The notes: generated from the sequence alone by a model not told the origin. A DNA stretch of 39,893 bases from Thermodesulfobacteriota bacterium (GCA_034190725.1 JAXHSZ010000434.1:1-39893); one strand, 5' to 3'. Numbered from the stretch's first letter, positions 1,974 to 37,166 are shown. A program made the numbers and translations.

Positions 1974-2131
1974 GTGTTCATCCATAAATGGCTATTTTTC
2001 GCGATCTCTGCGTCAGACTCAGATGTAAGGGCACATAGCAACGTGCCCCTACATACCCAATGTATTCATGCGGTTAAAATCTTCTTCTTCCTTGACCGTA
2101 TAAAAAATATCTTAATTCTGGATGGACACTA
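1974..2131 (+). mobile_element. MITE-like intergenic repeat, copy A (~158 bp)
   Basis: Terminal inverted repeats GTGTTCATCCATAAATGGCTATTTT ... AAAATATCTTAATTCTGGATGGACAC. Internal blocks (CTCTGCGTCAGACTCAGAT, CCCAATGTATTCATGCGGTTAAAATCTTC) are shared with copies at 3816, 33442 and 37015. Confidence 0.8.
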
Positions 2132-2152
2132 ACTATGTGAAAGGAGCAAGAA

Positions 2153-2635
2153 ATGGTATTCTTTTCTGGAGCTGAAATAATAGAAGTAGCAGTACAAATA
2201 GAAAGAAACGGTTTTTCTTTCTACAAAACCCTTGCAGACTCTTTGAAAGATAAAGATACTCAGGATCTCTTCAACCATCTTGCAGGCGAGGAGGAAAAAC
2301 ATATCAAGAGTTTTCAATCTCTTTATGAATCATTCAAAGAGTACACGCCGGATGTTGCGGATAAGGAAGAGTATTACGATTATATCAATATGCTGGCATC
2401 AATGAATGTTTTTACGAAAAAAGAGGGTATAGATGAGGTGGTTAGTAGAATGAAAAACAAGAAAGATGCCCTGGACATGGCTATTCGGTTTGAAAAAGAT
2501 TCAGTAGTCTTTTTTACTGAGATAAAAGGTCTTGTCAGAGAATCAGAAAAAGACTCGGTTGAAAACCTCATCTGTCAGGAACAAAGTCATTTACGAAGAC
2601 TCCTTCGGTTACTGAAAAGTGAGGAACAAAAGTGA
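2153..2635 (+). CDS. Ferritin-like di-iron protein (rubrerythrin superfamily, no rubredoxin domain)
   Basis: ATG preceded by AAAGGAG. Di-iron ligand pattern QIERNG..AGEEEKH in the first helix pair and RFEKDS..CQEQSH in the second. Confidence 0.8.
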
Positions 2636-2663
2636 ATCTAATCAACAAAGGGAGGATAACATT

Positions 2664-3236
2664 ATGGGATTAAAAGGAAGTCGGACTGAAAGAAATATTT
2701 TGACCGCTTTTTCAGGAGAATCTCAGGCCCGTAACAGGTATACATATTTCTCCAGTCAGGCCAAAAAGGAAGGGTTTCAACAGATGGCATACATTTTTGA
2801 AGAGACAGCCGACCAGGAGAAGGAACATGCAAAGAGACTCTTCAAACTTCTTCAAGGAGGAGAAGTTGAGATAAAAGCAGCTTTCCCGGCCGGTGTCATC
2901 GGTACAACTGCTCAAAACCTCAAGGAAGCGGCAGCGGGTGAAAACTATGAATGGACGGACATGTATCCTTCATTTGCAAAGGTTGCAAGAGAAGAAGGTT
3001 TTGAGGACATCGCCAAAATATTCGAGTCCATAGCAGTGGCTGAAAAGCAGCACGAAAGAAGATATCTTGGACTTCTTACAAATATTGAAAAAGGTACGGT
3101 TTTTAAGAAAGAAAAATCAGTGACCTGGCGATGCCGAAATTGCGGCTATCTTCATGAAGGAATCGAGGCGCCGGGAACATGCCCCGCATGTGACCATGCT
3201 CAGGCTCATTTCGAGCTTCTAGCAGAGAATTGGTAG
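2664..3236 (+). CDS. rbr: Rubrerythrin (classical: N-terminal di-iron four-helix bundle plus C-terminal rubredoxin-like domain)
   Basis: ATG at 2664 follows AGGGAGGA. N-terminus [53 protein letters not shown]-terminal [16 protein letters not shown]. The upstream extension of the ORF (2619) overlaps the previous gene and lacks an RBS. Confidence 0.95.
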
Positions 3237-3297
3237 TCAAATGGTCACATGACATCAAAGGTAACATTCCCTTTGAATGTGAGGAAAGGAGTTTGAA

Positions 3298-3813
3298 ATG
3301 AAAGAAAGGGTCGGAGCTGTAACAATGAGAGGGAATCCTCTTACTCTTATGGGAGAGGAGTTGAAGGTGGGCGACAAAGCGCCTGACTTTCAAGTGATTG
3401 ACAATGAAATGTCTCCGGTGAAGCTTTCGTCATTTATGGGAAAGGTGTGTATCATATCATCTGTGCCGTCTCTGGATACTCCCGTATGTGACATGGAGAC
3501 TCGACGCTTCAACGAAGAAGCCGGTCGATTAGCCTCGGATGTAGCCGTACTCACCATCAGCATGGATCTTCCTTTTGCACAGAAACGATGGTGTGGAGCA
3601 GCGGGTGTAGACAAAGTGAAAACCCTTTCCGACCACAAAGATGCCTCTTTCGGTATCTCATACGGTGTGCTCATAAAAGAACTGAGATTATTGGCAAGAG
3701 CTGTCTTTGTTATTGATCGGAATGGTGTCATCCGTTTTGTGAATTTGGTGAAAGAAATGACGGAGGAGCCGGATTATGATTCCATTCTTGCAGCAGTGAA
3801 AGAAATTGCTTAA
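3298..3813 (+). CDS. tpx: Thiol peroxidase (Tpx-type atypical 2-Cys peroxiredoxin)
   Basis: GNPLTLMGEELKVGDKAPDF, SVPSLDTPVCDMETRRFN (peroxidatic Cys), LPFAQKRWCGA (resolving Cys). RBS AGGAAAGGAG. Confidence 0.93.
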   Translation: MKERVGAVTMRGNPLTLMGEELKVGDKAPDFQVIDNEMSPVKLSSFMGKVCIISSVPSLDTPVCDMETRRFNEEAGRLASDVAVLTISMDLPFAQKRWCGAAGVDKVKTLSDHKDASFGISYGVLIKELRLLARAVFVIDRNGVIRFVNLVKEMTEEPDYDSILAAVKEIA

Positions 3814-3815
3814 AC

Positions 3816-3960
3816 AGTGTCTGAACAAAAACTTGATGGTTTTTTCAAGTTCAAGGAAGATAAAGATTTTAACCGCGGGAATACATTGAGTATTTGGAGG
3901 ACTAAAATCTGAATCCGACACAGAAATTGGGAAAAAATAGCAGTTTCCATTCGGGCACTA
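3816..3960 (-). mobile_element. MITE-like intergenic repeat, copy B (inverted orientation, ~145 bp)
   Basis: The reverse complement aligns with copies A/D/E (…CAGATTTTAGTCCTCCAAATACTCAATGTATTCCCGCGGTTAAAATCTTTATCTTCCTTGAAC…). It starts 2 nt after the tpx stop codon. The ends are AGTGTC... and ...GGGCACTA. Confidence 0.75.
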
Positions 3961-4028
3961 AATATATGAAACACTATGCCTGTTCTTCAAAGAATGGGCC
4001 AAATGAAATGGGAGGAAGTGAGGAGATT

Positions 4029-4481
4029 ATGAATGGAGATGGTCTGAAGGAAATTATTGATTTTGCAGTGAAAAAAGAACAAGAAGCAGCTGATTTTTAT
4101 AATGATCTCTCAGGTAAGGTTGAGTTGAAAGCACTGGCTGAAGAGTTACTCAAAATGGCCCGAGTGGAGGAGAGCCATAGGGATCGATTGAGAAATATGG
4201 ATGTCTCCGCTTATGTGGCAAGCCCAGTAAAACCTCCAATTGACCTTAAAATTGCCGATTATTTGATCGATAAAGAACCCACACCCGAGATGTCATGGCA
4301 AGATCTGGTGCACATAGCCATGAAACGGGAGCTGGCTTCTATGAGACTCTATACTGATCTGGCAAAAGGAACCTCTGATCCTCAAGCCAGACGACTCTTT
4401 GAGAATCTGGCAGTTGAAGAGGAGGCTCACAAACTCTATTTTGAAAAGATTTGGGATGAAGAGATCATGACGGACAATTAA
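4029..4481 (+). CDS. Ferritin-like di-iron protein (rubrerythrin superfamily)
   Basis: ATG at 4029 follows GGGAGGAAGTGAGGAG. AVKKEQEAADFY, ARVEESHRDRL, AMKRELASMRLY, AVEEEAHKLYF. The longer ORF from 3927 begins inside MITE copy B and is rejected. Confidence 0.8.
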   Translation: MNGDGLKEIIDFAVKKEQEAADFYNDLSGKVELKALAEELLKMARVEESHRDRLRNMDVSAYVASPVKPPIDLKIADYLIDKEPTPEMSWQDLVHIAMKRELASMRLYTDLAKGTSDPQARRLFENLAVEEEAHKLYFEKIWDEEIMTDN

Positions 4482-4508
4482 ATCCTGAATGGAAAAGACC
4501 TCTTTGCC

Positions 4509-4574
4509 TTTCAGATAAACCAAGTGTCAGGAGAGAAAAAAGGATCTGAAACCTGAACACTGACACTTGAAACA
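4509..4574. repeat. GTTTCAGGT-type heptamer-rich inverted-repeat element (family 2), locus a
   Basis: CAAGTGTCAG (4521-4530) and CTGACACTTG (4560-4569) form a perfect 10-bp inverted repeat. TTTCAGAT and ATCTGAAA form a second pair. Motifs CTGAAACCTGAACACTGACAC are shared with loci at 10397, 14172, 17172 and 21987. Confidence 0.7.
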
Positions 4575-4704
4575 GAAATTTAACTCCATATCAGGGGCGA
4601 TTTACATTTTCTAAGAAATTGTTCGTTGTGGTGTGCATCGTTAAAAGTATGCACTGAGAAATGAAGGATGCCTCATTTTCGATGTAAAAAAAGGAGGAAA
4701 TGTA

Positions 4705-5079
4705 ATGACAAAGAAATTGGAGATCTATAAATGTGAAGTGTGCGGGAATATGGTTGAAATGATCCACGATGGCAAGGGTGAACTTGTATGCTGTGGTCAA
4801 CCCATGAAGCTCTTTGTGGAGAACACAACAGATGCAGCCAAAGAGAAGCATGTGCCTGTGCTGGAGAAGGCCGATGACTCATGCAAGGTGAAGGTTGGAA
4901 GTGTTCCTCATCCTATGGAGGAAGCCCATTACATCGAATGGATTGAAGTGATCTCAGATGGAAAAGCGTATCGCCAGTTCCTCAAGCCGGGAGAGAAGCC
5001 TGAAGCTGTTTTTCCCATTAAAGCAGAGAAGATCACTTCCCGTGAATACTGTAATCTTCACGGTCTGTGGAAAGCATGA
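4705..5079 (+). CDS. dfx: Desulfoferrodoxin (2Fe superoxide reductase)
   Basis: N-terminal desulforedoxin-like CEVCGN..VCCGQPM. Centre II ligands [38 protein letters not shown]. Confidence 0.95.
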
Positions 5080-5112
5080 TATGAGAGTCGTCTTGTAGAG
5101 ACAGAGGTTCAA

Positions 5113-5853
5113 TTGTCATCTAAAAGGAGAAGAGATCTCAAGGATCATGTGAGAAACTTGCTCAATTTTTTTGATATTGATCAGGCGTTGTGTGAGCTGT
5201 CCCAAATTCCCCCTCGCAGGGTCATCAATCCTCTTTTGTCCTTATTCTACAGCCAAGATGAAGAAATAAGGTGGAAGGCGATTACGGCAATCGGTTCTCT
5301 TGTCTCCCTTATTGCTGCAAAGGACATGGAATCCGCCCGCATTGTGATGCGTCGACTCATGTGGAATCTCAATGACGAGTCCGGAGGAATAGGCTGGGGT
5401 GCTCCTGAAGCCATGGGTGAGATCATGGCCCGACATGAGGGTCTGGCAAAAGAGTATGCTCACATTCTCGTTTCCTATGCTCGAGAAGACGGCAATTTTT
5501 TGGAACACGAACCATTGCAATGCGGTGTATTGTGGGGTCTTGGGAGGTTGGCCCAGGCAAGGCCCCATATATTACAAGGACGAGGCGTAATACCACTTCT
5601 TCATCCCAACCTGGGATCACCAAATGCAACGATCAGAGCACTGGCTGCCTGGACTATTGGATTACTTGGTGTTAAAGACAGTCGTTCCCGGATTGAAGAG
5701 CTTTTGGGAGATAATGCCTCTGTTCACCTTTTTATTGATCAAAAAATATCGACGTATAGAGTCAAAGAAATAGCCAGGGACGCATTAACAAAATCGATAG
5801 ATCGTCGAGTTGGGGAAGTGTATTCTGAAGAGAGTATTCCTGAAACGAATTGA
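5113..5853 (+). CDS. HEAT/armadillo-like repeat protein of unknown function
   Basis: TTG start 5 nt after GAGG. Repeated helical motifs of HEAT type (DEEIRWKAITAIGSL, LWGLGRLAQARP, NATIRALAAWTIGLLG). From memory it resembles the proteins that databases label the DVU0298 family; this needs an HMM check. Confidence 0.65.
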   Translation: MSSKRRRDLKDHVRNLLNFFDIDQALCELSQIPPRRVINPLLSLFYSQDEEIRWKAITAIGSLVSLIAAKDMESARIVMRRLMWNLNDESGGIGWGAPEAMGEIMARHEGLAKEYAHILVSYAREDGNFLEHEPLQCGVLWGLGRLAQARPHILQGRGVIPLLHPNLGSPNATIRALAAWTIGLLGVKDSRSRIEELLGDNASVHLFIDQKISTYRVKEIARDALTKSIDRRVGEVYSEESIPETN

Positions 5854-5913
5854 TATGGCTGTTTTCAGTAATCTCTTCGAAAGTCTGTAAATAGAAAAAC
5901 AAAGGAGGTTTAT

Positions 5914-6114
5914 ATGACGACACCTAAACATTGCCCTGGTTTTGACTTATACCATAACCTGGATGCCTTTATATGTAAATGTCCCAGTTGCGGCAAGGAA
6001 AAGGAGATCTTCGCTGATGAATTCGATTCAAAGCACAAATGTCCGGGATGTGGGAAGGAGATTGATTTCACTCAATGTTCTATTGAAGGACCAAAATTAA
6101 AGGAAGGTGCATAG
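5914..6114 (+). CDS. Small Cys-rich zinc-ribbon/rubredoxin-knuckle protein (66 aa)
   Basis: Strong RBS AAAGGAGG 7 nt upstream of the ATG. Two CPxCGKE knuckles (CPSCGKEKE, CPGCGKEID) plus extra Cys. Confidence 0.6.
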   Translation: MTTPKHCPGFDLYHNLDAFICKCPSCGKEKEIFADEFDSKHKCPGCGKEIDFTQCSIEGPKLKEGA

Positions 6115-6430
6115 ATATACATCGAAATTGTAGGTTTTTATTCACATCATTCTTGACATGGGAAAACCATCCTTGCGTTTTTCCAAAGAAAAGTTTATAA
6201 ATGAATTAGGAAAGACAATGACTCATGTTAATGAATCGCAACATTGCAATGACGATGATGCATACTCGGCGGTCTATCGACGATTTCCAGCCCTGATATC
6301 AAGACTACTACTTATTCAAGGACAATTTAATGGAATGGGGCGAGTATCTCTGAAAAGTTTTATCAATTCATAATTTTTAACGTAATCTTAAACAACCAAT
6401 GTTTCACATACGAAACGAAGTATCCTAGAT

Positions 6431-6573
6431 AGTGCCCATCCAGAAATGGTCTTTTTGCCCAATATCTGCGTTATGCTCAAAAAATAATCCTCGGAATAGC
6501 AAACATATGCCTGTGGTTATTTTTTTCGCATGCCTTGATCTTGAACAAAAATCCTCATTTCTGGATGGACACC
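6431..6573 (+). mobile_element. MITE-like intergenic repeat, copy C (divergent)
   Basis: The ends AGTGCCCATCCAGAAATGG ... CATTTCTGGATGGACACC are near-perfect inverted repeats and match the termini of copy E. The interior is diverged. Confidence 0.65.
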
Positions 6574-6770
6574 AGATAATTTCTACTGATATACTGCATA
6601 GAGGGGCCTTTCATGAATTGCCCCTATTGGAGATACTTCAGCCATTTCATATTTAAGTTTTGTGACAGTTTAGCAAATGATCTCGGCACCTTACTTCAGG
6701 GTTATTTGCTAGAATAATAAAGATTTGAATATATTACAAGCCCTTCTAATGTGCATATATTGTTATCGAT

Positions 6771-6799
6771 TTTTAATGTGAGTCTAGGTCTGATATAAT
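6771..6799 (+). promoter_or_regulatory. Candidate sigma70-type promoter for nifU-nifS (extended -10)
   Basis: TGATATAAT at 6791-6799 (TGn + TATAAT). Weak -35 TTTTAA at 6771-6776 with a 17-nt spacer. Lies 109 nt upstream of the ATG at 6908. Pattern match by eye only. Confidence 0.3.
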
Positions 6800-6907
6800 G
6801 AAGGTTTACAAAGGGATAAACGTGATTATATTATAGTAAAAATAGTAAAAAGGTAATAAAGAAGATAACATGTATCTCACAGTGTCAAACGTAAGGAGGA
6901 AAAGAAA

Positions 6908-7420
6908 ATGTACTCAGAAGTTGTTATGGATCATTTTAAAAATCCGAGAAATGTCGGTGAGATGAAGGATGCGGATTCAGTTGGAGAAGTGGGCAATCCG
7001 GTCTGCGGTGATATGATGAATATCTACATCAAGGTGAAAGATGATCGTATAGAGGATATAAGTTTTCAAACATTCGGTTGTGGAGCGGCTATTGCCGTAT
7101 CAAGTATGCTCACGGAGATGGCCAAAGGCAAGACCATAGAAGAGGCTAAAAAGATTACAAATAAAGCGGTGGCTGAATCTCTGGGAGGTCTTCCAAAGAA
7201 CAAACTCCATTGCTCAAACCTGGGGGCGGACGCACTCCAACTGGCCATAAAGAATTACGAGGACAAAAAGGCAGGAAAAGTCAGGGAAGAAAAAATAGTA
7301 GAGGAGAAACACGAGCATTTGCATGGTGAGACCTGCAAATGTCCATATTGTAACGGCGATGTGGATCTGGAGTTGGATGTATGTTCAAGTTGTGGGAAAG
7401 TGGTGGAGAACTGTCACTGA
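6908..7420 (+). CDS. nifU: NifU/IscU-type Fe-S cluster scaffold with C-terminal Cys-rich extension
   Basis: HFKNPRNVG, GNPVCGDMM, FQTFGCGAAIA, LHCSNLGADAL (the three scaffold Cys). Extra tail HGETCKCPYCNG..CSSCGKVVENCH. RBS AAGGAGGA. Confidence 0.9.
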   Translation: MYSEVVMDHFKNPRNVGEMKDADSVGEVGNPVCGDMMNIYIKVKDDRIEDISFQTFGCGAAIAVSSMLTEMAKGKTIEEAKKITNKAVAESLGGLPKNKLHCSNLGADALQLAIKNYEDKKAGKVREEKIVEEKHEHLHGETCKCPYCNGDVDLELDVCSSCGKVVENCH

Positions 7421-7442
7421 ATTCGGGTAAGGAGGCCCAGAA

Positions 7443-8609
7443 ATGAGTGTAACAAACTTAGACTATATATCAGCCAATCCACTTTTGCCGGAAGTTCATG
7501 AAGCTATGATCGATGCCATACAGGAAAATTATGGCAATCCTTCCAGCTCCCATCAACTGGGGGATCAAGCCACTGAGGTTTTGGAGCAGGCTCGTGAGAA
7601 CGTGGCTCATCTGATCAATAGTTCAACACCGGAAGAGATTGTATTTACTTCATCCGGAACCGAATCCATAAATCATGCCATAAAGGGTGTAGCCCTGGCT
7701 AATGCAGACAAAGGAAAGCACATCATAACATCCAATATTGAGCATAATGCGGTTTTAAAGTCACTCAGAAGGTTGACAAGGATGGGTTACAGGATAAGTT
7801 CGGTTTCTGTTGATGATTATGGAAGGGTTAATCCGGATGACGTGGCAAAGGCTATAACTGATCAAACTATCCTCGTGACGATTATGCATGGGAATAACGA
7901 GATCGGAACCATTCAGCCAATAAAGGAAATCGCAGAGATTACAAAGGGAAAGGACATCCTCTTTCACTGTGATGGGGTTGCTTCGGTAGGGGTTGTGCCG
8001 ATTGATGTCCAGGATCTGGGTATAGACATGCTCAGTTTTGCAGCCAACCAGTTTAACGGGCCCTCAGGGATGGGTGGTCTTTATGTTCGTAAAGGAGTGA
8101 ACCTGTGGCCTTTGATAGATGGTGGTGCTCAGGAGAACGGGAGAAGAGCGGGCACGGAAAATCTTATCGGTATCGTAGGGATGGGTGTGGCGGCAAATAT
8201 TGCGTTAAAGGAGATGGAATCTCGTGTGACCCATGCAAAAAAATTGAAAGACAAGCTGGTCACGGGACTGAAAGATCAGATAGGGGATACTATAATCAAC
8301 GGTCACCCGGAGTTCTCTCTCCCCAACCTTGTATCAGTGTCCGTCAAATATGTGGAGGGAGAGAGCATCGTTCTGATGTTGGATGAGGAGAATATCACTG
8401 TGTCTACAAGATCTGCCTGCGCATCCGGAGCCCTTCGGGCCTCCCATGTACTTCTTTCAGTGGGAAGAGAATACGCAGATGCCCAGGGAACTCTCGTCAT
8501 AAGCTTCGGGAGAGACACCACGGAGGATGAGATTGATAGATTTCTGAAAGTTTTAAAGGAGTCAGTGGAGACACTGCGAAAGATTTCTCCACTCTATAAA
8601 AAAAATTAA
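7443..8609 (+). CDS. nifS: Cysteine desulfurase (NifS/IscS class, PLP-dependent)
   Basis: GNPSSSH, FTSSGTESINHA, ITSNIEHNAV, SFAANQFNGPSG (PLP Lys region variant), STRSACASG (active-site Cys loop). Immediately follows nifU. Confidence 0.92.
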   Translation: MSVTNLDYISANPLLPEVHEAMIDAIQENYGNPSSSHQLGDQATEVLEQARENVAHLINSSTPEEIVFTSSGTESINHAIKGVALANADKGKHIITSNIEHNAVLKSLRRLTRMGYRISSVSVDDYGRVNPDDVAKAITDQTILVTIMHGNNEIGTIQPIKEIAEITKGKDILFHCDGVASVGVVPIDVQDLGIDMLSFAANQFNGPSGMGGLYVRKGVNLWPLIDGGAQENGRRAGTENLIGIVGMGVAANIALKEMESRVTHAKKLKDKLVTGLKDQIGDTIINGHPEFSLPNLVSVSVKYVEGESIVLMLDEENITVSTRSACASGALRASHVLLSVGREYADAQGTLVISFGRDTTEDEIDRFLKVLKESVETLRKISPLYKKN

Positions 8610-8658
8610 CCGAAGACACTTGCCCAGGAGTCGGAAGCCAAAGGTCGGAAGAGAAAAA

Positions 8659-9444: not shown

Positions 9445-9721
9445 GATTTTATTGGTCATATTCTTTTTAGGGGCGTATTCAATTCACGATTCTCATTTTT
9501 AGAGATTATTTCTCCTCCCTCAATCCCTCTCACCAAGGGCGGGAGAACTTCTGACTGAGTATGTTTACTCTCTTCATTCAACTGTATTGCCATAAAAGGG
9601 AAGGGGACTTTATCGAATGTTTTTATAATTTGCACGTCAATATCATTGATGTGACATACAGAAAAAAGGTATGTTAAAGGTTTTCTATTCAGACAGCATA
9701 TTTGGGTGAAAGGAGTTTGAG

Positions 9722-10333: not shown

Positions 10334-10396
10334 GAGGTAGCTGGCAAGCGGTGAACTCGGCTAACTATGCATGTCGAAAAATTTCTTGGAAGATAT

Positions 10397-10465
10397 GAAC
10401 CTCAGGTGTCAAGTGTCAGGTTTCAGATCTTTTAATGCTCACTCATAGCGTCTGAAACCTGAAAT
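10397..10465. repeat. Family-2 heptamer-rich inverted-repeat element, locus b (between convergent genes)
   Basis: CTCAGGTGTCAAGTGTCAGGTTTCAGATC. Perfect 11-bp inverted repeat CAGGTTTCAGA (10417-10427) / TCTGAAACCTG (10451-10461). Confidence 0.7.
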
Positions 10466-10526
10466 AATACAAATAAAGTGTAAAGTGTAAACTGTTATCT
10501 GTGAATATGAAGGCTGCCCAGTAAGA

Positions 10527-14171: not shown

Positions 14172-14203
14172 AGATTTCAGGTTTCAGTGTTCAGGTTGCA
14201 GGT
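14172..14203. repeat. Family-2 heptamer-rich repeat, locus c
   Basis: AGATTTCAGGTTTCAGTGTTCAGGTTGCAGGT: tandem degenerate GTTTCAG/GTTCAGG units as at the other loci. Confidence 0.6.
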
Positions 14204-14820
14204 ATTTCTTTTCTCACTCCCGAAACTTGTGAGTGATTACAAAGCAAAAGACTTCGTAATTACTCTGCGTTCTCAGACAGAAGGGGACATTTTACTCTGT
14301 CATAGCAGGTTGAGTTTTTCAACCGCCACAGTCATCTTTTGAATGAAAACTCGTTCTGCATATTCAGACAGGATAAAGCCTTTGCGGTATGTGAAAATAT
14401 GGGTGATAAGGACAAGAATACTGGTATAGAGGAATAGTATTGTATACTAGCATGTAGAGTGGATTCTTCAGTGTAGTGTGGCATCAGTGAGAAGAATGAA
14501 ATGCAGGTGAGTTACAGAAGGGAGTGTGCATTGAAAACTCTTTATGAACAACAAGAAAAGAAGAGTATCGGTAGTTACACCAATCGAAAATTCTTCAGCT
14601 TATAAACTTATGATCAAAGATAACGGCATTTCCCATCAGAAAATCAGATTATTTTACAGAGTAATCTATATTGTCAAACCTCCTTTAATTATCCCTCAGG
14701 GTTTCATTGACAGAACTCTCAAATTCTTTATCATCGACCTGATCTGTATATGAAGCTGTGTATCTTAAAACAGTCTGTGGTTCATTTAAAGAGAGAACGA
14801 CTTCAATGTGTAATAATAGA

Positions 14821-17171: not shown

Positions 17172-17340
17172 TGGTTTCAGGTGTCAGGTTTCAGATGTCA
17201 GAAGAGAGAAAGACTAGAAATGCACTCTTCGCTCAGGCATCATAACTTTTTTACGACCTCAAGGTACTCTCCATACATACAGCTCCTAGTTGTAACTGCG
17301 TTGTTTCTTGAACCTGAAACCTGTGAACCTCGAACCCGTA
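17172..17340. repeat. Composite family-2 element: two inverted heptamer-rich arms flanking ~100 bp
   Basis: Left arm TGGTTTCAGGTGTCAGGTTTCAGATGTCAG (17172-17201). Right arm CTTGAACCTGAAACCTGTGAACCTCGAACC (17308-17337) is its imperfect reverse complement. Lies just downstream of the amzA stop. Confidence 0.65.
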
Positions 17341-17957: not shown

Positions 17958-17969
17958 AGCGGCTTGCAG

Positions 17970-26266: not shown

Positions 26267-26340
26267 AATGATCTTTCCTCCTCAGCTTTTGTACACAGAA
26301 AGCGGCCTTCTTTGAAGGAAGACCGCCTATTCACTTGAAA

Positions 26341-28557: not shown

Positions 28558-28602
28558 GTTTTTTCTCCTTCCTAAGAGATGTTAAGATCGTCTGGCTCTG
28601 AT

Positions 28603-30639
28603 CTAGACAGCTTCCAGTTTTTGTCTGTCGGCCATATCCATGAGCACTCGTTCTCTGGCTTTGTCAATGCCCAGCTCTTTTCTCTTCTTATCGATGTGGG
28701 CAATCATCTTATGTGCATGTTTGATGGGATCGGCTTCGAAATCCCACTTGCCGCCGTAGATCCCTTCCAATTTATTGTACAGATGATCCTGAAATACAGG
28801 GGCACCGGATACAGGCATGGTCACACCAAACACAGTATACACTCCGGAAGCCACGAAATAATGCCCGATACTGATTGCCTTCTCACTCATCCATTCCGGG
28901 GCTGAACCCGCAGCCGGAAGGTCACTGATATCCTTACCCAATCCACCTGCCTTTACAACCTCTGTGGCCGCCATCAGTATCCTGCTGTTGTCCACGCAAG
29001 ATCCCATATGAAGTACTGGCGGGATTCCTACTGTCTCGCACACCTCTGCAAGCCCTGGTCCACAATACACTGCGGCTGCCTCCGGTGTCAATAATCCTGC
29101 TTTGCCGCAGGCCATGGCATTACACCCTGTGGTGAGAACGATCACATCGTTCTTCAAAAGCTCCTTGACAACAGTGAGATGTCCATTGTTATGCATTGTG
29201 CGGGCATTGTTACACCCCACGACTCCTGCGACACCCCTGATCCTGCCGTTTATGATATTGTCGTTCAACGGAGTATAAGACCCCCTGAATGAGCCACCCA
29301 GATGATAATTGATTGCTTCATAAGAAAATCCCACAACCTGGACCTCTTTTTCTTTGGGAATCATCGGTTCCGCACTCCGGTTTTTAAAATTGTCTATAGC
29401 CATCCTGAGTATTTTTTTCGCATCTTCCATAGCGTGATGCTCATCGAACTCTATGTGAACCGTATCCCCTGATCTTATGCGAGTGCGGGGATTCGTCGTT
29501 ATCAACTTGGTGTGAAAACACTTGGCCACATTTGCCAGATTTTCCATGATGCACTGAACATCAACTACCATTGCATCAACAACACCAGTCACTATAGCCA
29601 ACTCTTGTTGTAAGAAATCTCCTGCTATAGGGACTCCGTGCCTGACCAGTATTTCATTTCCTGTACAGCATATACCTGACAGATTAATCCCTTTTGCGCC
29701 TTTGCTCTTTGCATATTCCAGCATCTCGGGATCTTGGGATGCGGCTACAATCATCTCTGACAAGAGTGGTTCGTGTCCGTGAATAACGACGTTCACCTGA
29801 TCTTCATCCATTACTCCCAGGTTAATCTGCGCATGAATGGGATACGGCGTACCAAAGAGAACATCCTGGAGGTCTGTTGCCAGCATAGACCCACCCCAGC
29901 CATCGGCCAATGCGGCGCGACTGCACTGTTTTACTATATTTTCGTAATCTTGGTCCACTCCCATGTGTGTACGGTGCATTATCTCTACCACTTCTCGGTC
30001 TATCCCCCGAGGCACCACGCCCTGCTTTTTCCACAGTTCATAACGGGGCTCTGGGGCTCTTTTGGCATAGTAGATCTCACCTTCTTGTCTGCCCCATTCC
30101 GCCAGGGCCTTCTCCGCCACTTCCAGTGCTATCTCATAAATGTCACGATCCTTCTCTTCATCATCTACAGTAACCGTTGTGGCAACTCCAAAGTCCGGTG
30201 CGATCTCTAGTAATTTCTGTGGATCCTTTATCTTGTAATCGTCTGTCTCTTTGCGTGCTACTGCCAAAAAGACCTCTGCAACACCCCGTCCATGATCGGA
30301 ATGAGCGGAAGCCCCAGCTGCCACCATACGCGCAAAATTACGGGCAGCGATAGTGTCCGGAGTTGCTCCGCAGAGGCCCTTTCTGTCGTCTTCTCCTTCA
30401 ATACCACTCTTTGGCAAGGGAAGTCGACATGGTCCCATAGCGCAGTTCTTACAACATGTGCCCTGTATCCCGATTGCGCATGGAGCCATTGTGACGGCCC
30501 TATCAAAAACCGTCTCTATTCCCTCTGCCTGGGCTTTCTCAAGCATCTTTACAGTGGCGGAATCGACACTGCATTCAGAGGGGACTGCCGTTTTCTTCGG
30601 TTTCTTCACAGTCTTTTCCTTTGCTTCTTCTGTTGCCAT
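28603..30639 (-). CDS. acsA: Anaerobic Ni-Fe-S carbon monoxide dehydrogenase catalytic subunit
   Basis: 678 aa. D/B-cluster motifs CAIGIQGTCCKNCAMGPCRL. GLCGATPDT. C-cluster region HGHEP, GICCTGNE, GCNN, MGSCVDNSR. Confidence 0.95.
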   Translation of the reverse strand: MATEEAKEKTVKKPKKTAVPSECSVDSATVKMLEKAQAEGIETVFDRAVTMAPCAIGIQGTCCKNCAMGPCRLPLPKSGIEGEDDRKGLCGATPDTIAARNFARMVAAGASAHSDHGRGVAEVFLAVARKETDDYKIKDPQKLLEIAPDFGVATTVTVDDEEKDRDIYEIALEVAEKALAEWGRQEGEIYYAKRAPEPRYELWKKQGVVPRGIDREVVEIMHRTHMGVDQDYENIVKQCSRAALADGWGGSMLATDLQDVLFGTPYPIHAQINLGVMDEDQVNVVIHGHEPLLSEMIVAASQDPEMLEYAKSKGAKGINLSGICCTGNEILVRHGVPIAGDFLQQELAIVTGVVDAMVVDVQCIMENLANVAKCFHTKLITTNPRTRIRSGDTVHIEFDEHHAMEDAKKILRMAIDNFKNRSAEPMIPKEKEVQVVGFSYEAINYHLGGSFRGSYTPLNDNIINGRIRGVAGVVGCNNARTMHNNGHLTVVKELLKNDVIVLTTGCNAMACGKAGLLTPEAAAVYCGPGLAEVCETVGIPPVLHMGSCVDNSRILMAATEVVKAGGLGKDISDLPAAGSAPEWMSEKAISIGHYFVASGVYTVFGVTMPVSGAPVFQDHLYNKLEGIYGGKWDFEADPIKHAHKMIAHIDKKRKELGIDKARERVLMDMADRQKLEAV

Positions 30640-30698
30640 ATGAATTTCCTCCGCATATTTAGATTGATTATACTAAACTTATTTTCTCACAAAATATT

Positions 30699-32279
30699 TT
30701 ATGACCTCTTGTGAATTCTATCCAAAAAGGCGATAATCTTTTCCGTGTTTGATAGTTGAACGTCGGCAGGAGTAGCCGGTATAGCTTCACCAGTCTTTGC
30801 TTCCTTTTGACGTTTTGCTTCAAGTGCTTCACGCTCTTTTTGTCTTTTCAACCTCATTTCATCAAGGTCTGCTTCGGCTTTTGCTTTGGCTTTCTCTTTT
30901 GCCTCAGCCTCGGCTTTCTTTTTTGCTTCCTCCTCGGCTTTGGCCTTTGCTTCCGCATCTGCTTTCGCCTTTGCCTCTGTTTCCGCCTTTGCCTTGGCAT
31001 CCTCTTCTGCTTTCTTCTTTGCTTCCTCCTCGGCTTTAGCTTTTGCTTCTGCATCGGCTTTTACCTTGGCCTCTGAATCCACTTTTACCTTTGCTTCTGC
31101 ATCCGCCTTGGCTTTAGCATCTTCAACCGCTTGAGGCTTTTCTGCAACCTTCTTCTCTTCCTTTACCTCAGGTTTTGGCGCTGCCTTGGGAGGGGCTTTC
31201 GGCGCTGCTTTCTTCTTTTCCTCTTTGGGCTCTTCCTTTACCTCTATTTTCTCGATCTTCGGAAAATCGCCTTCCGGCTTAGCGTTAATCCCCTGCAATT
31301 TAGCCGCGAGTTGCTCGGGGCTGATGGCAAGATCGCCGGTAATCATCAAACAAATAAACTCCTTCACCAACTTGACACTCTCTGGATGCCTTAAGACAAG
31401 GATATCCGAACCGGCCAGAAGATAGGTAACGGCTCCGACACATTCCAGCATGATCCCTCTGTTCTCAGGGTCGCCCAGAGTGGGAGCTTCCTCCAAACTC
31501 TGCTTGGCCTCTTTACACTTCCATATCTCCTCACCGAGACTGTTGATTATTGGACTCTGAAGTTTTTCATCTTCCTGAGTCAATGCGGCCATCCTGATTC
31601 TTTCCATTACTGAATAGGAATATTCCAGGCCATATCCCAATCCTCCCGTGGTGGGATCGATCAGGATCTTATCAGAACTCACTCCAAGATTATCGAGAAG
31701 TACATTGAGTTGTTTGGCAAGATTGATGTCTATGGGGGTTGACGCGATCACCGATTGTTTGAATCCCAAAGCACTGGCACCGATTTGTTTGTGAGTAGCT
31801 TCTTCAACCGGGCCTAAAACAAGGTTCTTTCCCTGGTTATCTTCCGCTATCTTCTTCAGGACTTCAACGTCTTTATCTTTATCCCCGCATCCCCACACTG
31901 CAACCGGGACGTCCACAGCATCGCGCACTTTTTTCACCGTGGCGGCTGCCTCCTCCGGACCCTTGTTCGGACCGTTGGGATCAGTGCTTTTCAATTGTAC
32001 CACAATCATGTCAGCACCGTATTCTTCTACACACTTCTTTGCCCAGGCCCCGGAATCGTTCAATACATCCTTAAATGGCGTAATAACAGCCTCAGGCCAT
32101 TCTTCAGGTGCCATGTCCCATATTTCCATGGCAACCTTCGGTGTATTAGGCATTTCACCCTCAAACAGGTAAAAAGGATAGGATGACTCTCCACCTACAG
32201 TGAGAGTCTTTCCCCCTTCACCCAGGGTCACCTCTTTTATCATTCCTGTGTAATGTGTTTTTGTAATTTCAAAGGCCAT
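30699..32279 (-). CDS. acsD: Corrinoid iron-sulfur protein small subunit (delta) with ~185-aa Lys/Glu/Ala-rich C-terminal extension
   Basis: Residues 1-~330 look like the AcsD TIM-barrel (EVTLGEGGKTLTVGGE, MIVVQLKSTDP, IDPTTGGLGYGLEYSYSVMERIR). Residues ~341-526 are low-complexity (PKEEKKKAAPKAPPKAAPKPE, then repeated AEAKAKAEEEAKKKAE units), ending in NTEKIIAFLDRIHKRS. Confidence 0.88.
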   Translation of the reverse strand: MAFEITKTHYTGMIKEVTLGEGGKTLTVGGESSYPFYLFEGEMPNTPKVAMEIWDMAPEEWPEAVITPFKDVLNDSGAWAKKCVEEYGADMIVVQLKSTDPNGPNKGPEEAAATVKKVRDAVDVPVAVWGCGDKDKDVEVLKKIAEDNQGKNLVLGPVEEATHKQIGASALGFKQSVIASTPIDINLAKQLNVLLDNLGVSSDKILIDPTTGGLGYGLEYSYSVMERIRMAALTQEDEKLQSPIINSLGEEIWKCKEAKQSLEEAPTLGDPENRGIMLECVGAVTYLLAGSDILVLRHPESVKLVKEFICLMITGDLAISPEQLAAKLQGINAKPEGDFPKIEKIEVKEEPKEEKKKAAPKAPPKAAPKPEVKEEKKVAEKPQAVEDAKAKADAEAKVKVDSEAKVKADAEAKAKAEEEAKKKAEEDAKAKAETEAKAKADAEAKAKAEEEAKKKAEAEAKEKAKAKAEADLDEMRLKRQKEREALEAKRQKEAKTGEAIPATPADVQLSNTEKIIAFLDRIHKRS

Positions 32280-32324
32280 TTAATTCTCTACCTCCCTCTA
32301 CAGGTTAATATAAACATATCCAGA

Positions 32325-33212
32325 TTAGATCAGCCCGGCATGAACTTTGGCGGATTTCACCGTATTCATCATCAGCATGGTTATCGTCATCGGCCCCACT
32401 CCCCCGGGAACAGGCGTTATGGCTGAGGCTTTCTCCTTTACGGCTTCAAAGTCCACATCTCCACAAAGTTTTGCCTTCCCTGATTCTGTCTTTCCGATAC
32501 GGTTCACGCCGACATCGATGACTACGGCTCCTTCCTTCACCATGTCCGCTGTCACTGCCTTTGGTTTTCCCGCGGCAACGATAAGAATATCAGCCCTTTT
32601 CGTATAAGAGGCCATGTCCTTCGTTCTCGTATGACATACGGTCACGGTTGCGTTTGCCCCTTCCTGTTTTTGTAAAAGGATATTTGCCACGGGTTTCCCG
32701 ACGATGTTGCTTCGTCCCACAACAACAACATCAGCCCCATTCGTTTCCGTATTGCTCCTTATTAACAATTGCTGGACCCCGGCCGGGGTGCAAGGAAGAT
32801 AATCCGCTTCACCAATCATCAATTTCCCCAGGTTAACGGGGTGAAAGCCATCCACATCCTTCTTGGGATCTATGGCATAGAGTACTTTTGTATCATCTAT
32901 ATGCTTTGGCAGGGGCAATTGCACAAGTATGCCATGGATCTGAGGGTCCTTGTTGTATGTGTCGATCAAACCCAATAACTTTTCTTCCGAAATATCATCC
33001 GGTTGGTTGTCCTGTATGGAATGAAATCCCAACTCCTTTGCCGTCTTCTGTTTCCCTGTCACATAGCTTATGGATGCAGGGTTCTCCCCAACGAGTATGG
33101 TGACCAATCCGGGCACCACATTATGTTTCTCCTTTAACTCTTCAACTTCCTTCTTCAATTCTTCTCTGATCTGTTTGGCTACTTCGGTTCCGCTGATAAT
33201 CTTCGCTGACAT
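32325..33212 (-). CDS. folD: Bifunctional methylenetetrahydrofolate dehydrogenase / methenyltetrahydrofolate cyclohydrolase
   Basis: PGLVTILVGENPASISYV, HGILVQLPLPKHID, DVDGFHP, CTPAG, VVVGRSNIVGKPV, PVPGGVGPMTI. Confidence 0.95.
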   Translation of the reverse strand: MSAKIISGTEVAKQIREELKKEVEELKEKHNVVPGLVTILVGENPASISYVTGKQKTAKELGFHSIQDNQPDDISEEKLLGLIDTYNKDPQIHGILVQLPLPKHIDDTKVLYAIDPKKDVDGFHPVNLGKLMIGEADYLPCTPAGVQQLLIRSNTETNGADVVVVGRSNIVGKPVANILLQKQEGANATVTVCHTRTKDMASYTKRADILIVAAGKPKAVTADMVKEGAVVIDVGVNRIGKTESGKAKLCGDVDFEAVKEKASAITPVPGGVGPMTITMLMMNTVKSAKVHAGLI

Positions 33213-33280
33213 TTTCCCCTCCCAAAAATTATTTTACCCCTTCCCCTTTTTTTCTTGTTGAATGGGCAAAACTAGTTAAA

Positions 33281-33311
33281 TGTTTCAAAAAAAATCTCAT
33301 GGATAGTCACT
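33281..33311 (+). mobile_element. Solo terminal fragment of the MITE-like element
   Basis: TGTTTCAAAAAAAATCTCATGGATAGTCACT resembles the 3' terminus CTTGCAAAAAATATCTCATTTCTGGATGGACACT and is the inverted partner of the 5' end of copy D (AGTGACTATCCAT). Confidence 0.45.
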
Positions 33312-33441
33312 GAAAAGATCTTACACATTTTCAAGTGTCCCGGTTTTAAAAACCATCCTTATCTTTGCTGAACGTAAGGCTTGGCAGTCCGACTTTTTAA
33401 ATGGTTGGCAATATGGAATGAAGTTCAAACTCCGCTCAGGG

Positions 33442-33583
33442 AGTGACTATCCATAAATGGCTATTTCCTCATCCCTGAGTCAAACTCAGATTTTGGTCCT
33501 TAAAATACTCGGAGTATTCATGCGGTCAAAATCTTCGATTTCTTTGATCTTGCAGAAAATATTTCATTTCTGGATGGACACTA
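33442..33583 (+). mobile_element. MITE-like intergenic repeat, copy D (between cooC and folD)
   Basis: AGTGACTATCCATAAATGGCTATTTCC ... AAAATATTTCATTTCTGGATGGACACTA. Its last 3 nt (CTA, 33581-33583) are the complement of the cooC TAG stop codon. Confidence 0.8.
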
Positions 33584-34336
33584 GTTGATTATGTCATCCA
33601 ATATCTGAGCAACTGCCTGTACCGCACTCGACTCATCAGGTAAATCTGTCAGGGGTCTCAACGAGAGATCATACTCAGAGATTAACGTATCCATAGGGAT
33701 AGTGAAAAAGGAGTTGAATCCGTTTTTTTTCATCTCAGTTTTTAGTACAGGATTTAATTCCCCTTGGATTCTATTAAGAATAAAGTATTCTTTTTTTATT
33801 GATAGTTCAAGTTCTTTGGCAAGATCCCTTATTCTGGCTGCAGTCATAATCCCCTTTGGTGTAGGGTCTGAGACAATCAACAAAGCATCAATCGACTGAA
33901 GTATCCGTCTGCTCAAGTGTTCCATCCCGGCTTCATTATCGAGAACCACAAAATGGTAGTTTTTGATAAAAATGTCTAAAAACCTCCTGAGCATATTGTT
34001 CACAGGGCAATAGCACCCAGGCCCCTCACCTCTCCCCATCGCCAGGACATCTATACCTTCTCCTTCCACCAAAGATTCATTGAGCTTTAATTCAAGAAAA
34101 GCTTCTTTATCCATTCCCGGCGGTAATTTTGACAAATCTGATGAAAAATCTTCTCTTACCGCCCCAAGTGTCTTTCCCTGATGAAACCCAATGGTTTCGG
34201 CAAGATTCACATTGGAATCTGCATCAACTGCCAATATGGGGCCTTTCTCTCTTCTCTTGAGATTCCGTATGATAAGTCCGGATATGGTTGTTTTGCCTAT
34301 GCCTCCTTTTCCTGCAACTGCAATCACAAAACTCAA
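33581..34336 (-). CDS. cooC: CODH nickel-insertion accessory ATPase (CooC/AcsF type)
   Basis: Deviant Walker A VAGKGGIGKTT. CxC metal motif GPGCYCPVN. MinD/Mrp-like fold signatures (VVLDNEAGMEHL). TTG start 11 nt after AGGAGG. Confidence 0.9.
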   Translation of the reverse strand: MSFVIAVAGKGGIGKTTISGLIIRNLKRREKGPILAVDADSNVNLAETIGFHQGKTLGAVREDFSSDLSKLPPGMDKEAFLELKLNESLVEGEGIDVLAMGRGEGPGCYCPVNNMLRRFLDIFIKNYHFVVLDNEAGMEHLSRRILQSIDALLIVSDPTPKGIMTAARIRDLAKELELSIKKEYFILNRIQGELNPVLKTEMKKNGFNSFFTIPMDTLISEYDLSLRPLTDLPDESSAVQAVAQILDDIIN

Positions 34337-35145
34337 GACAGACTCTTCCTCCTGTTATAAATACTCTGGATAGATAGAAAATACAAACGGATAGTGTAAA
34401 TAATACGTATCCTTCCTGATCGATTCGTCACTCAATCGATAGTCAGGTTGATAATCGATGGTTGGTTTGACAGCACAGGTGAGTGAACCTTCATTCATAA
34501 CGGCTGAAAAGTACCATACAATTGCTTTATTGTCAAGAGCTTTTGCAAATTTTTCAGAAAGCCACCGGTGTGGAAAAAATTCCCCGACTTCTCTTTTTTG
34601 TACTTGACAATCCAAGGTCAATATCCTACATAGATTAAGCGGTTCAAGGTTCACGATTGAATCATACCACCCCCCGAATTGCAAGGAATTGTTAATAATC
34701 CTGTAGCTCTTGTCATCGCATCCGTTGGGTGATTATCGAAGCCGTGGTCATAATCAGAGCTCCAAGAACTATTGCTATTATGTCTTTACAACCATGAACA
34801 TTGAATGGGGAAAACTGAACTGCTCAATTTAAGTGAAACTTGCATGCTCCGATTGAGCAAAACCGCAGGAATAGTGGTATCTATTTCAGGGATTTTGTTA
34901 TTAACTACAGAGATACTTTCGAATAAACCCGTAAAGAGCCTGTTTGAAAGACCTCTTTCCTCACTTGGATTGAGTTTTTTGCTCGTTCTCAGTTCGCTAC
35001 GCAAAATGTTAAGTTATTTTTGCGCAGATCCTTAAGATTATTGATGACACGTTTGCAGGAAGGGAGGTGGTGAGTTCAAGGAAGGTGTTACTGCGGATTA
35101 TTGAATGTGGTTATACATAACAAATTGAAAAAGAGGAGGGGAAAA

Positions 35146-35562
35146 ATGGCCATTGGAAAAGAAGTTCGCGAGATGTTAAAAGGAATGCTTGGTATGACTG
35201 ATGAGGAGATAGATAAAATCGGGCCTGACAGAGCAAAATTATTGGCGGGTGCACCAGAGCTATTTAACTACAAGATAACCGCTGAAGTCATTGCGTCTGT
35301 ACGATGCGCTGCACAAATAAAAGTGGGTGATAAATTCGTCTTTAACGCCAATGTCCTCAATAAAGATGAATCTACGGCTCCGGCCTGCATCGGCGCATTA
35401 GCTCCCTTAATGGAGCCTATTCATATGATTTTTGACAGGCTCAGCGAGGGGCTTGATCCTAATGGCTTATGGACCCGGACTGTTTCATGTTTTGATCCTG
35501 GTTTAGAGCGTGGTGGCGTTGGGAATGTGTTATTTAAACTCACCGCCGAAAAATTGGGTTAG
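35146..35562 (+). CDS. TIGR04076-like small Cys-containing protein with N-terminal extension
   Basis: ATG at 35146 follows AGAGGAGGGG. The pattern C-x5-KVGDKF...P-x-C-x2-A...L-x-P...SCFDPG...VLFKL matches my recollection of the TIGR04076 family layout. Needs HMM confirmation. Confidence 0.6.
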   Translation: MAIGKEVREMLKGMLGMTDEEIDKIGPDRAKLLAGAPELFNYKITAEVIASVRCAAQIKVGDKFVFNANVLNKDESTAPACIGALAPLMEPIHMIFDRLSEGLDPNGLWTRTVSCFDPGLERGGVGNVLFKLTAEKLG

Positions 35563-35593
35563 TTGATCAGTTGATATTGATAGTTTGGTTTGT

Positions 35594-35627
35594 GAAAGGG
35601 CAAGGGTACCTTCTCAATTGCCCTTTC
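35594..35627. terminator. Hairpin between convergent genes (possible bidirectional terminator)
   Basis: GAAAGGGCAA (35594-35603) and TTGCCCTTTC (35618-35627) form a perfect 10-bp stem with a 14-nt loop. There is no clear U-tract on either side. Confidence 0.4.
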
Positions 35628-35698
35628 AATACACTATTCCCGTTACCTTTGTAAGTATGATCTCTCAAAGGAAGAAAACAACTTTTTTTATCCAGACC

Positions 35699-36994
35699 TT
35701 AAGACATCTTATCCGCCCCCGGTAGTGGTGTGTCACCTATTATTCGTTCCCTCTCAAGTTCCTCTATCTCTTTTCCAGACATCCCTAAAAGCTTACCGAG
35801 TACATATTCATTATGCTCCCCGAGAGCAGGTGCCAGCCTCTTTATGGTGATCGGCGTCTTTGTCATCTTCACAATGGGACCAGGATGGCGCATGGTTCCC
35901 ACCTGGGGGTGACTGCCTGTCTGAAAGAAATCACGCTTCTCTAAGTGGGGATTCTCCACAATGGCCTTGCCGTTCAACACCGCCCCTGCCGGAACACCTG
36001 CTTTCTGAAGCAGGGTCATGACCTCATGATCTTCATGTTGAATGGTCCATTCCTCTATGAGTCTATCCAACTCGTCCTGATTTTCGAGCCTGCCGAGAAG
36101 AGTAGAGAACTTTTCATCCGCTGTCCACTTCGGACTGCCGATGGCTTTGGCAAAAGCCCTCCATTCTTTGTCCGATGAAACAGCAATGGCAACCCATCTG
36201 TCATCAGGCGGCTCATCTCCACCACGGCAGCGATAACAGCCATGAGGAGCCATGGACGGGTGACGATTGCCCATACGCTCCCATGTCCTCCGGTTCATGG
36301 TGAAGTCCATCATTGCTTCACCGATAAGCATGGTTGTGGCCTCACTCTGAGAGACATCTATCCATTGACCCTTTCCTGTTTTTTTGCGGTAGTGCAAAGC
36401 GGCTATGATCATGCCTGCGGCGCTTGCAGCGGCTGTGGGATCGCCGTAGTCCATACCCGATTTCATGGGTCCTGATTCGGCACTGTAGCCAAGGATCATT
36501 GCAATACCGCTCATCTGTTCCTGGGACATACCGAATGCTCGATAGTTCTTCTCCGGGCCGATGGCTCCATAAGCAGGCATGGAGAGAACGATAATGTCCG
36601 GCTTTACCTCTTTCAGAGAGTCATAGTCGAGTTTGAGCTTCTCTATCACATCGGTAGGGAAATTCACAGTCACTACATCGCTTATTTGCACAAGGCGATG
36701 GTAGATCTGAAGTCCGCGCGGTCTGCTCAGGTCGATGGTGATTCCACACTTGTTTTGATTCCAATATTGAAAGGGCCCCCGGCGATTATATGGCCTCTCA
36801 CCAGGGTCCATGTCTGGATAGATACCCAGACCGCTTATTCCGGCGATGGGTCCTCTGGAGGCATCGTAATTCTGTATTGATTCTACCTTGATCACCTCAG
36901 CTCCAAAATCGGCAAGCAGTTTGCCTACCCAGGGACCAGCCCAGATTACGCCGTGGTCCAACACTCGTATACCTTCCAGTGGCAATTGAGACAC
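35699..36994 (-). CDS. Family III CoA-transferase (CaiB/BaiF/Frc-like), 431 aa
   Basis: GTG at 36994 lies 7 nt after AAGGAGG. N-terminus LPLEGIRVLDHGVIWAGPWVGKLLADFGAEVIKVES is the family III signature region. The longer ORF to 37054 starts inside MITE copy E. Confidence 0.88.
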   Translation of the reverse strand: MSQLPLEGIRVLDHGVIWAGPWVGKLLADFGAEVIKVESIQNYDASRGPIAGISGLGIYPDMDPGERPYNRRGPFQYWNQNKCGITIDLSRPRGLQIYHRLVQISDVVTVNFPTDVIEKLKLDYDSLKEVKPDIIVLSMPAYGAIGPEKNYRAFGMSQEQMSGIAMILGYSAESGPMKSGMDYGDPTAAASAAGMIIAALHYRKKTGKGQWIDVSQSEATTMLIGEAMMDFTMNRRTWERMGNRHPSMAPHGCYRCRGGDEPPDDRWVAIAVSSDKEWRAFAKAIGSPKWTADEKFSTLLGRLENQDELDRLIEEWTIQHEDHEVMTLLQKAGVPAGAVLNGKAIVENPHLEKRDFFQTGSHPQVGTMRHPGPIVKMTKTPITIKRLAPALGEHNEYVLGKLLGMSGKEIEELERERIIGDTPLPGADKMS

Positions 36995-37014
36995 TCGAAT
37001 ACCTCCTTTTAAAT

Positions 37015-37166
37015 AGTGCCCATCCATATATGCATATATGGCTATTTTCCGCAATCTCTGCGTCAGACTCAGATTTTAATCCTCAAAATACCCAATGTAT
37101 TCCTGCGGTTAAAATCTTCGTCTTCCTTGACCTTGCAAAAAATATCTCATTTCTGGATGGACACTA
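37015..37166 (+). mobile_element. MITE-like intergenic repeat, copy E (between the two CoA-transferase genes)
   Basis: AGTGCCCATCCATATATG...GGCTATTTTCCGCAATCTCTGCGTCAGACTCAGATTTTAATCC...CAATGTATTCCTGCGGTTAAAATCTTC...TCATTTCTGGATGGACACTA. TA is present on both flanks. The terminal CTA (37164-37166) is the complement of the upstream gene's TAG stop. Confidence 0.85.

Follow-up and report, generated by a model that had tools for sequence, protein, structure and literature searches.

What kind of element is scattered, in copies of about 150 bp, between the genes of a metagenome-assembled genome (MAG) labelled Thermodesulfobacteriota, and which enzyme moves it? The window, by which we mean the whole stretch of DNA analysed here (GCA_034190725.1 JAXHSZ010000434.1:1-39893), is an entire 39,893-bp contig of that MAG. 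An earlier reading of the sequence, hereafter the original prediction, had described five copies of a MITE (miniature inverted-repeat transposable element), linked them to IS630/Tc1-mariner through a TA target-site duplication, and taken their density as a sign of recent activity. Profile searches and alignment confirm the five copies at the places and in the orientations claimed (A, C, D and E on the + strand, B on the - strand), and the class, a MITE-like non-autonomous multicopy element with terminal inverted repeats, is borne out. We consider it very likely that these copies belong to a MITE family spread over the sulfate-reducing Desulfobacterales and mobilised by an ISNCY-type (ISRm17/ISRle10-like) transposase, with 6-bp duplications at the target Y-TARYTA-R.

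Target duplication and autonomous partner

A profile built from the five copies re-detects them in the window at E = 1e-25 to 1e-44, with no other full-length match there. Their similarity runs from end to end and includes the inverted termini (mean column identity 71%), rather than being confined to low-complexity stretches, and the shared termini GTGYCCATCCAKAAATGG and CATTTCTGGATGGACAC and internal blocks reported earlier are genuine. The limits of each window copy were set by the conserved GTG...CAC ends, which gives lengths of 139-156 bp (n = 5). The original prediction had found the right places, but its limits ran one or two bases too far, into the TA of the duplication.

The duplication was measured on 70 elements with both ends, against shuffled flank pairs in 2000 trials. 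Only a length of 6 gives identity at all positions, 0.63-0.71 at each (about 0.68), the variable middle positions included. Perfect 6-bp duplications flank 19 of the 70 elements, and 32 match at five or more of the six positions, a level that shuffled flanks reach in 9.3 elements on average and 18 at most. The preferred target is a palindromic, AT-rich consensus, Y-TARYTA-R. The TA noted earlier at the junctions is merely the outer part of this 6-bp repeat: copy E is indeed flanked by TA on both sides, but that description was incomplete, since the repeat on each side is TAAATA.

Using a pattern that kept the terminal repeat and excluded the T-run that follows it in MITEs, a metagenome scan returned two contigs of ~1.8 kb, L208 and L173 (names of this form denote contig stretches fetched around scan matches), in which the same termini surround an open reading frame (ORF) of 451-454 amino acids (aa). 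Eight full copies of this insertion sequence (IS) were examined (L208, L173, L237, L239, L240, L241, L134 and L022). They measure 1663-1703 bp, start with GTGTCCATCCA, finish with TGGATGGACAC and encode a transposase of 451-457 aa; five of the eight carry perfect 6-bp duplications. An autonomous IS with the termini of the MITE, which the original prediction had left to be found, is therefore at hand as a ~1.7-kb member of the ISNCY family.

The IS protein contains the Pfam domains DDE_Tnp_1 and DUF772 and matches the NCBIfam model NF033593, 'ISNCY family transposase', at 441 and 471 bits (cut-off 325). Its homologues number in the thousands, mostly on contigs of 1.7-2 kb; those named by NCBI are ISNCY family transposases from Deltaproteobacteria, and the nearest named elements are ISRm17 and ISRle10, whose transposases are 45-47% identical to it in aa sequence. 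Clustering of ORFs over 115 fetched loci for a recurring transposase recovered only housekeeping families (SDR, sigma-54 activators, ABC transporters). Because clustering required members from two loci, it missed the single IS in L022, which tblastn detected.

Comparison of the flanks and ends of both elements establishes that IS and MITE have the same termini, duplication length and target, and from these shared features we infer that the MITE is mobilised by this ISNCY-type IS. As an ISNCY-family (IS5-like) enzyme of the DDE_Tnp_1 type, the partner transposase leaves the IS630/Tc1-mariner affiliation proposed at the outset unsupported. Some autonomous ISs have, at a distance of 6 bp, the end of a second element that shares their termini (...GGACAC TAGGTA GTGTCC...; L208 1-75, L173 1-72, L134 1783-1815), a spacing that suggests insertion adjoining resident copies or into their duplication.

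MITE and IS match solely over 18-27 bp of the IS right end, downstream of the transposase gene; the left end of the IS departs from the MITE sequence after 11 nucleotides (nt; GTGTCCATCCACGAAAGG...). Both MITE termini are therefore of the right-end type (right inverted repeat, IRR), which points to the MITE as a foldback (IRR-IRR) derivative and not a simple internal deletion. A foldback origin is consistent with the palindromic build of the whole element. On this model the MITE would have been born as an IRR-IRR foldback of the right end of the IS, the ISNCY transposase would bind its inverted repeats in trans, and it would have moved through DDE-type transposition with 6-bp staggered target cuts.

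Such insertions would be tolerated at stop codons, because TAA or TAG is part of the target and G is the first base of the element, so that a junction of flanking TA with that G restores TAG; they would also survive between genes. In 15 of 73 elements the stop codon of the neighbouring gene is supplied by the element, and in 28 of 73 a gene end lies 12 nt away or less. Orientation relative to flanking genes is unbiased (19 versus 18 in tandem contexts).

An empty counterpart was found for one junction. For the window's CoA-transferase ORF, an exact-protein look-up gave no match, and a homology search showed the identical protein (100%) in the collection. The closest orthologue of the CoA-transferase beside copy E is 73% identical in aa sequence, and in that genome one CoA-transferase gene adjoins the other (ATCTGATG), the element being absent. 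When copy E and one TAAATA are removed from the window, the remaining sequence reads ...ATT ATT TAA AAGGAGG-N8-GTG, a normal stop, ribosome-binding site and start.

Size, spread and age of the family

The 17-mer CATTTCTGGATGGACAC, scanned against one genome per species, matched at least 115 loci, of which at least about 95, among the matches listed, come from different species-level genomes (MAGs) of Desulfobacterales/Desulfobacteraceae. In these 115 loci and the window, the profile of the five copies gives 117 non-overlapping hits, 80 of them full length and mostly 147-152 bp, so the further copies on which the proposed family depended do exist. The MITE ends GTGYCCATCCAKAAATGG and CATTTCTGGATGGACAC are conserved above 90% in most columns and form terminal inverted repeats of ~18 bp. 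GTG and CAC bound every copy, and each is imperfectly palindromic throughout; the 80 full copies have no ORFs of their own, and their size is within the 50-800 bp of MITEs. The copies are dispersed beside unrelated housekeeping genes in many species. Many hits fall at contig ends, as multicopy repeats break assemblies.

A few copies lie in contigs binned outside this order, as KSB1, Ignavibacteriota, Nitrospinaceae and Anaerolineales. The same termini with 6-bp repeats are seen in L063 (Ignavibacteriota, on a 1.17-Mb contig), L027 (KSB1), L090 (Nitrospinaceae) and L108 (Anaerolineales); the interior of the KSB1 element differs. These occurrences could reflect horizontal spread or binning error, L063 being on a long contig. 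Four Nostoc loci and several others proved to be chance 17-mer matches within genes, not MITEs. The scan for the inverted repeat in viral contigs found none, and the MITE consensus matched a plasmid collection only in two chance 20-mers.

Pairwise identity among the window copies reaches only 64-77%, and each copy is closer to copies from other species: C is 93% identical to L107, from another species, and E is 87% identical to L057. Low mutual identity, together with the closer foreign copies, indicates that several old subfamilies coexist in the window, and at 64-77% identity the density of copies is no sign of a recent burst. The claim of a recently active family is therefore unsupported, and the only perfect duplication in the window belongs to copy E. 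The best explanation is an old family, split into subfamilies and spread over the Desulfobacterales and a few other anaerobe lineages, whose copies on this contig are mostly old insertions.

Other forms occur among the fetched loci. Miniature derivatives of 39-105 bp consist of barely more than both inverted repeats (L026 6849-6894, L052 5219-5268, L091 2351-2389, L035 5624-5728 and L216 1558-1596) and, where checked, still have 6-bp repeats at their flanks, such as the TAGTTA found at either end of that in L052. The fetched loci, 1.5 Mb in all, contain 51 very small GC-rich hairpins with the pattern (A/G)TCCCGC-N4-6-GCGGGA(C/T). They frequently sit within MITEs, at varying positions (L013 ~3350, L081 ~5355, L164 ~3638, L188 ~6368, L192 ~8867), as though MITEs were themselves targets for another, far smaller palindromic unit. 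Long inverted-repeat pairs in L034, L092, L075 and L094 were set aside as separate elements that enclose ordinary genes.

A strand-specific hairpin and the competing explanations

The two strands of the element fold differently. In copy E the folding energy is -58.6 kcal/mol (z = -8.6) for the reverse-complement strand and -40.1 kcal/mol for the given strand. The reverse complement is the more stable strand in 78 of 81 copies (means -65.3 versus -52.0 kcal/mol), and RNAalifold finds almost no structure in the orientation used by the original prediction (-1.2 to -1.6 kcal/mol), as compared with -29 to -34 kcal/mol for the reverse complement. Covariation was tested on 33 diverse copies with a 42-pair structure: 94.8% of cells are paired, versus 79.9% after shuffling and at most 48.5% with partners slid; 25 of the 42 pairs show changes on both sides; and the covariation score is 0.446 versus 0.166. 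G.U pairs occupy 145 cells on the reverse-complement strand, as against 13 for the equivalent C.A. All subfamilies have kept the unpaired central motifs TCCTCGA and CCTGCGG on either side of the covarying apical stem.

Two segments of the window, 35-70 nt long, resemble this central core without the inverted repeats (Table 1). They are the sole candidates for an additional fragment that had been counted beside the five copies with no coordinates attached, and they resemble the central core only. The stretch 38925-39020 folds as its own hairpin of ~75 nt (z = -3.3 to -3.9). The core also appears without inverted repeats, in a different covarying stem, at L221 ~4303, L182 ~10779 (-), L226 ~6099 and L229 ~362. 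These core-only segments may belong to a repeat family of their own, or may be where the MITE core came from.

Scans for known features were negative. Against Rfam the window gave no gathering-level match, a permissive scan reached only chance level (E 0.5-8), and the core-only segments matched nothing; a tRNA scan gave no hit. Inspection of the central core by eye for a sigma-54 promoter, an integration host factor (IHF) site or a k-turn turned up nothing that fits.

One tentative proposal, to which we give a minor share of probability, is that the MITE carries a selectively maintained module that acts single-stranded on one strand: a hairpin of ~140 nt with conserved G.U wobbles, a conserved asymmetric internal loop UCCUCGA / CCUGCGG and a covarying apical stem. 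Such a module could serve as the binding site of a protein, from the host or associated with the transposase, or it could act as a functional RNA that the MITE spreads through the Desulfobacterales. In a stronger version, the repeat would chiefly act as a structured RNA, or else as an ERIC/REP-like element of single-stranded DNA, retained for a role in the host or the element such as mRNA stabilisation, processing or protein binding, with mobility secondary or extinct. The paired cells and two-sided changes, the strand asymmetry in stability and in G.U pairs, and the loop motifs, conserved in all subfamilies and found outside the MITE too, speak for it. However, orientation is random, so half of the copies would be transcribed as the poorly pairing strand, and a cis role in host mRNAs is not indicated. 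The contexts are unrelated across species, duplications stand at the flanks, and Rfam offers no match. Further, a structured element of this kind is compatible with a MITE and would only add a layer to it. We regard the stronger version as improbable.

A Stowaway-like MITE of the IS630/Tc1-mariner superfamily with a TA duplication is very improbable. Most copies do read TA-GTG...CAC-TA, and TA stands before 40 and after 31 of 67 elements; Tc1-like ends start CAGTG or similar. Flank identity nevertheless extends over six positions, with the variable middle included, several perfect repeats (ATGTTA, TAACTC, TAATTC, TCTCTA) do not have TA at each of their two ends, and the IS that shares these termini codes for a DDE_Tnp_1/ISNCY transposase rather than an IS630 one, its duplications being 6 bp long too. 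The 6-bp register statistics refute the TA reading.

A derivative of a recombination site or single-strand transposon (an integron attC, or a REP/PATE element moved by a RAYT or IS200/IS605 HUH enzyme) would share the 140-150-nt intergenic imperfect palindrome and its strand-specific pairing, but such classes have neither target duplications nor terminal inverted repeats bound by a DDE enzyme, whereas this family shows 6-bp duplications and has a DDE IS to match, with no single-orientation array and no GTTRRRY core sites, so that this reading, the least probable of all, is already contradicted.

Several observations weigh against a MITE family mobilised by an ISNCY-type transposase. Nucleotide similarity between MITE and IS is restricted to 18-27 bp of one end. 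No transposase was found among the 30 main ORFs of the window, as the original prediction had also reported, and the window is the whole contig. The junction without the element, which bears on the earlier suggestion to look for empty sites in relatives, comes from a distant relative (73% aa identity) and not from a near-identical genome. Retention of the hairpin by compensatory changes, with G.U on one strand only, is unpredicted for a purely parasitic double-stranded DNA element, and the conserved core occurs also outside the inverted repeats.

The window copies and their relation to known elements

The copies and their flanks are listed in Table 1, together with other duplicated flanks and the core-like segments; for the MITEs in L057, L025, L054 and L037, the strand entry is the one on which the flanking repeats were read.

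Table 1. MITE copies, core-like segments and duplicated flanks in the window and in fetched loci
Feature	Position	Strand	Length (bp)	Flanking repeats	Remarks
MITE copy A	1974-2129	+	156	TAACTC 1968-1973; TAACTA 2130-2135	5/6 match; between two rubrerythrin genes
MITE copy B	3817-3958	-	142	TATTTA 3964-3959; TGTTTA 3816-3811 (- strand reading)	5/6 match; inverted repeats degenerate
MITE copy C	6432-6572	+	141	TAGATA 6426-6431; CAGATA 6573-6578	5/6 match; different subfamily; upstream of nifU/nifS
MITE copy D	33443-33581	+	139	CAGGGA / TAGTTG	2/6 match, decayed; old copy
MITE copy E	37016-37164	+	149	TAAATA 37010-37015; TAAATA 37165-37170	perfect 6-bp duplication; left inverted repeat with 8-bp internal duplication
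Core-like segment	38949-39015	+			without inverted repeats; TCCTCGA - stem-loop - CCTGCGG
Core-like segment	34827-34895	-			without inverted repeats; similar to 38949-39015
MITE in L057		+ of locus		TAGATA / TAGATA	
MITE in L025		+ of locus		TAACAT / TAACAT	
MITE in L054		+ of locus		GAGTTA / GAGTTA	
MITE in L037		+ of locus		TCTCTA / TCTCTA	
IS in L237			1682	TAGGTA / TAGGTA	
IS in L239			1683	TATTTA / TATTTA	
IS in L240			1699	AAACTA / AAACTA	
IS in L241			1682	TACTTA / TACTTA	
IS in L134			1663	TAGCTA / TAGCTA	
IS in L022			1699	TACCTA / TAGCTA	in a Desulfobacteraceae MAG

All five copies are strictly intergenic and both orientations occur, as had been claimed; apparent ORF overlaps with B and E stem from upstream alternative start codons. 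Three copies touch gene ends. The stop TAA of an AhpC/redoxin gene (3811-3813) falls within the duplication of copy B. The TAG stop of a CbiA/ParA-type P-loop ATPase gene (33581-34336, -) is formed by the last base of copy D and the flanking TA, and that of a CoA-transferase gene (37164-38357, -) by the last base of copy E and the flanking TA. This last stop lies on one side of copy E; on the other is the ribosome-binding site for the CoA-transferase gene that comes next (GTG start 36992). The genes of the window are of anaerobe type: rubrerythrins, AhpC, desulfoferrodoxin, NifU/NifS, a CODH/ACS Wood-Ljungdahl cluster and two family-III CoA-transferases.

Copy A and a copy in L011 (7533-7696) both carry, in place of the apical loop, a GC hairpin of ~20 nt, GGGCACAT(A/C)GCA(A/C)(C/T)GTGCCCC; shared by two different species, this variant marks a subfamily that genomes have in common. 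Two further repeats of the window are of other kinds. A tandem repeat with 12/24-nt periodicity (30846-31151) lies within a CdhD-like gene (30699-32279, -), where it probably encodes a low-complexity linker rich in Lys, Ala and Glu. A short heptamer-like repeat (TCAGGTG TCAAGTG TCAGGTT TCAGA) occurs four times, intergenic, downstream of genes and in both orientations, at 4536-4572 (-), 10402-10433, 14175-14211 and 17177-17208.

Among known systems, the closest comparison is with ISRle10 and ISRm17 of Rhizobium and Sinorhizobium. ISRle10, on plasmid pRL7, has the ends GTGCCCGTCCATAAACGG and CCGTTTATGGACGGGCAC and is flanked by the 7-bp repeat TAGTCTA. Its terminal sequence GTGCCCGTCCATAAACGG resembles GTGYCCATCCATAAAYGG of the MITE, the short AT-rich duplication of 6-7 bp is a common trait, and the transposases of the partner IS and of ISRm17/ISRle10 pass the same NCBIfam equivalog model. 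By contrast, the MITE has ~142 bp instead of ~1.7 kb, no transposase gene and two termini of the right-end type, and its duplication, like that of the Desulfobacterales ISs, is 6 bp long where that of ISRle10 is 7. The ISRm17/ISRle10-like group probably corresponds to the ISDol1 subgroup of ISfinder, with direct repeats of 6-7 bp. ISDol1 is named after Desulfococcus oleovorans. That ISNCY includes an ISDol1 subgroup is documented (PMC8147514).

In overall build, an intergenic imperfect palindrome of ~130-150 bp with many copies in both orientations, the family resembles ERIC/IRU of enterobacteria and further bacterial MITEs with long hairpins, such as Correia/NEMIS, RUP and YPAL. ERIC hairpins are alike, too, in that their pairing is preserved by compensatory substitutions. 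There is no sequence relationship to any of these, and here, unlike there, a 6-bp duplication and an autonomous partner are identified; Correia duplicates TA, and for ERIC we know of no transposase. Stowaway-type and IS630-derived MITEs are likewise small, with terminal inverted repeats and TA at both junctions, but differ in the 6-bp duplication and in the family of the partner transposase. No description of this family was found in the searchable literature. The kind of element is ordinary, and this particular family appears to be undescribed.

Conservation of a hairpin on one strand raises a small question about the constraints upon such elements. For the annotation of Desulfobacterales genomes, the analysis supplies a defined repeat family, with consensus, limits, 6-bp duplication, target Y-TARYTA-R and partner IS. 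The family accounts for many contig breaks in Desulfobacterales MAGs, the starts and stops of genes beside insertions are corrected, and several stop codons are seen to be created where flanking TA meets the first G of the element. It also ties a MITE, built from two right ends, to the poorly characterised ISNCY (ISRm17/ISRle10-like) group.

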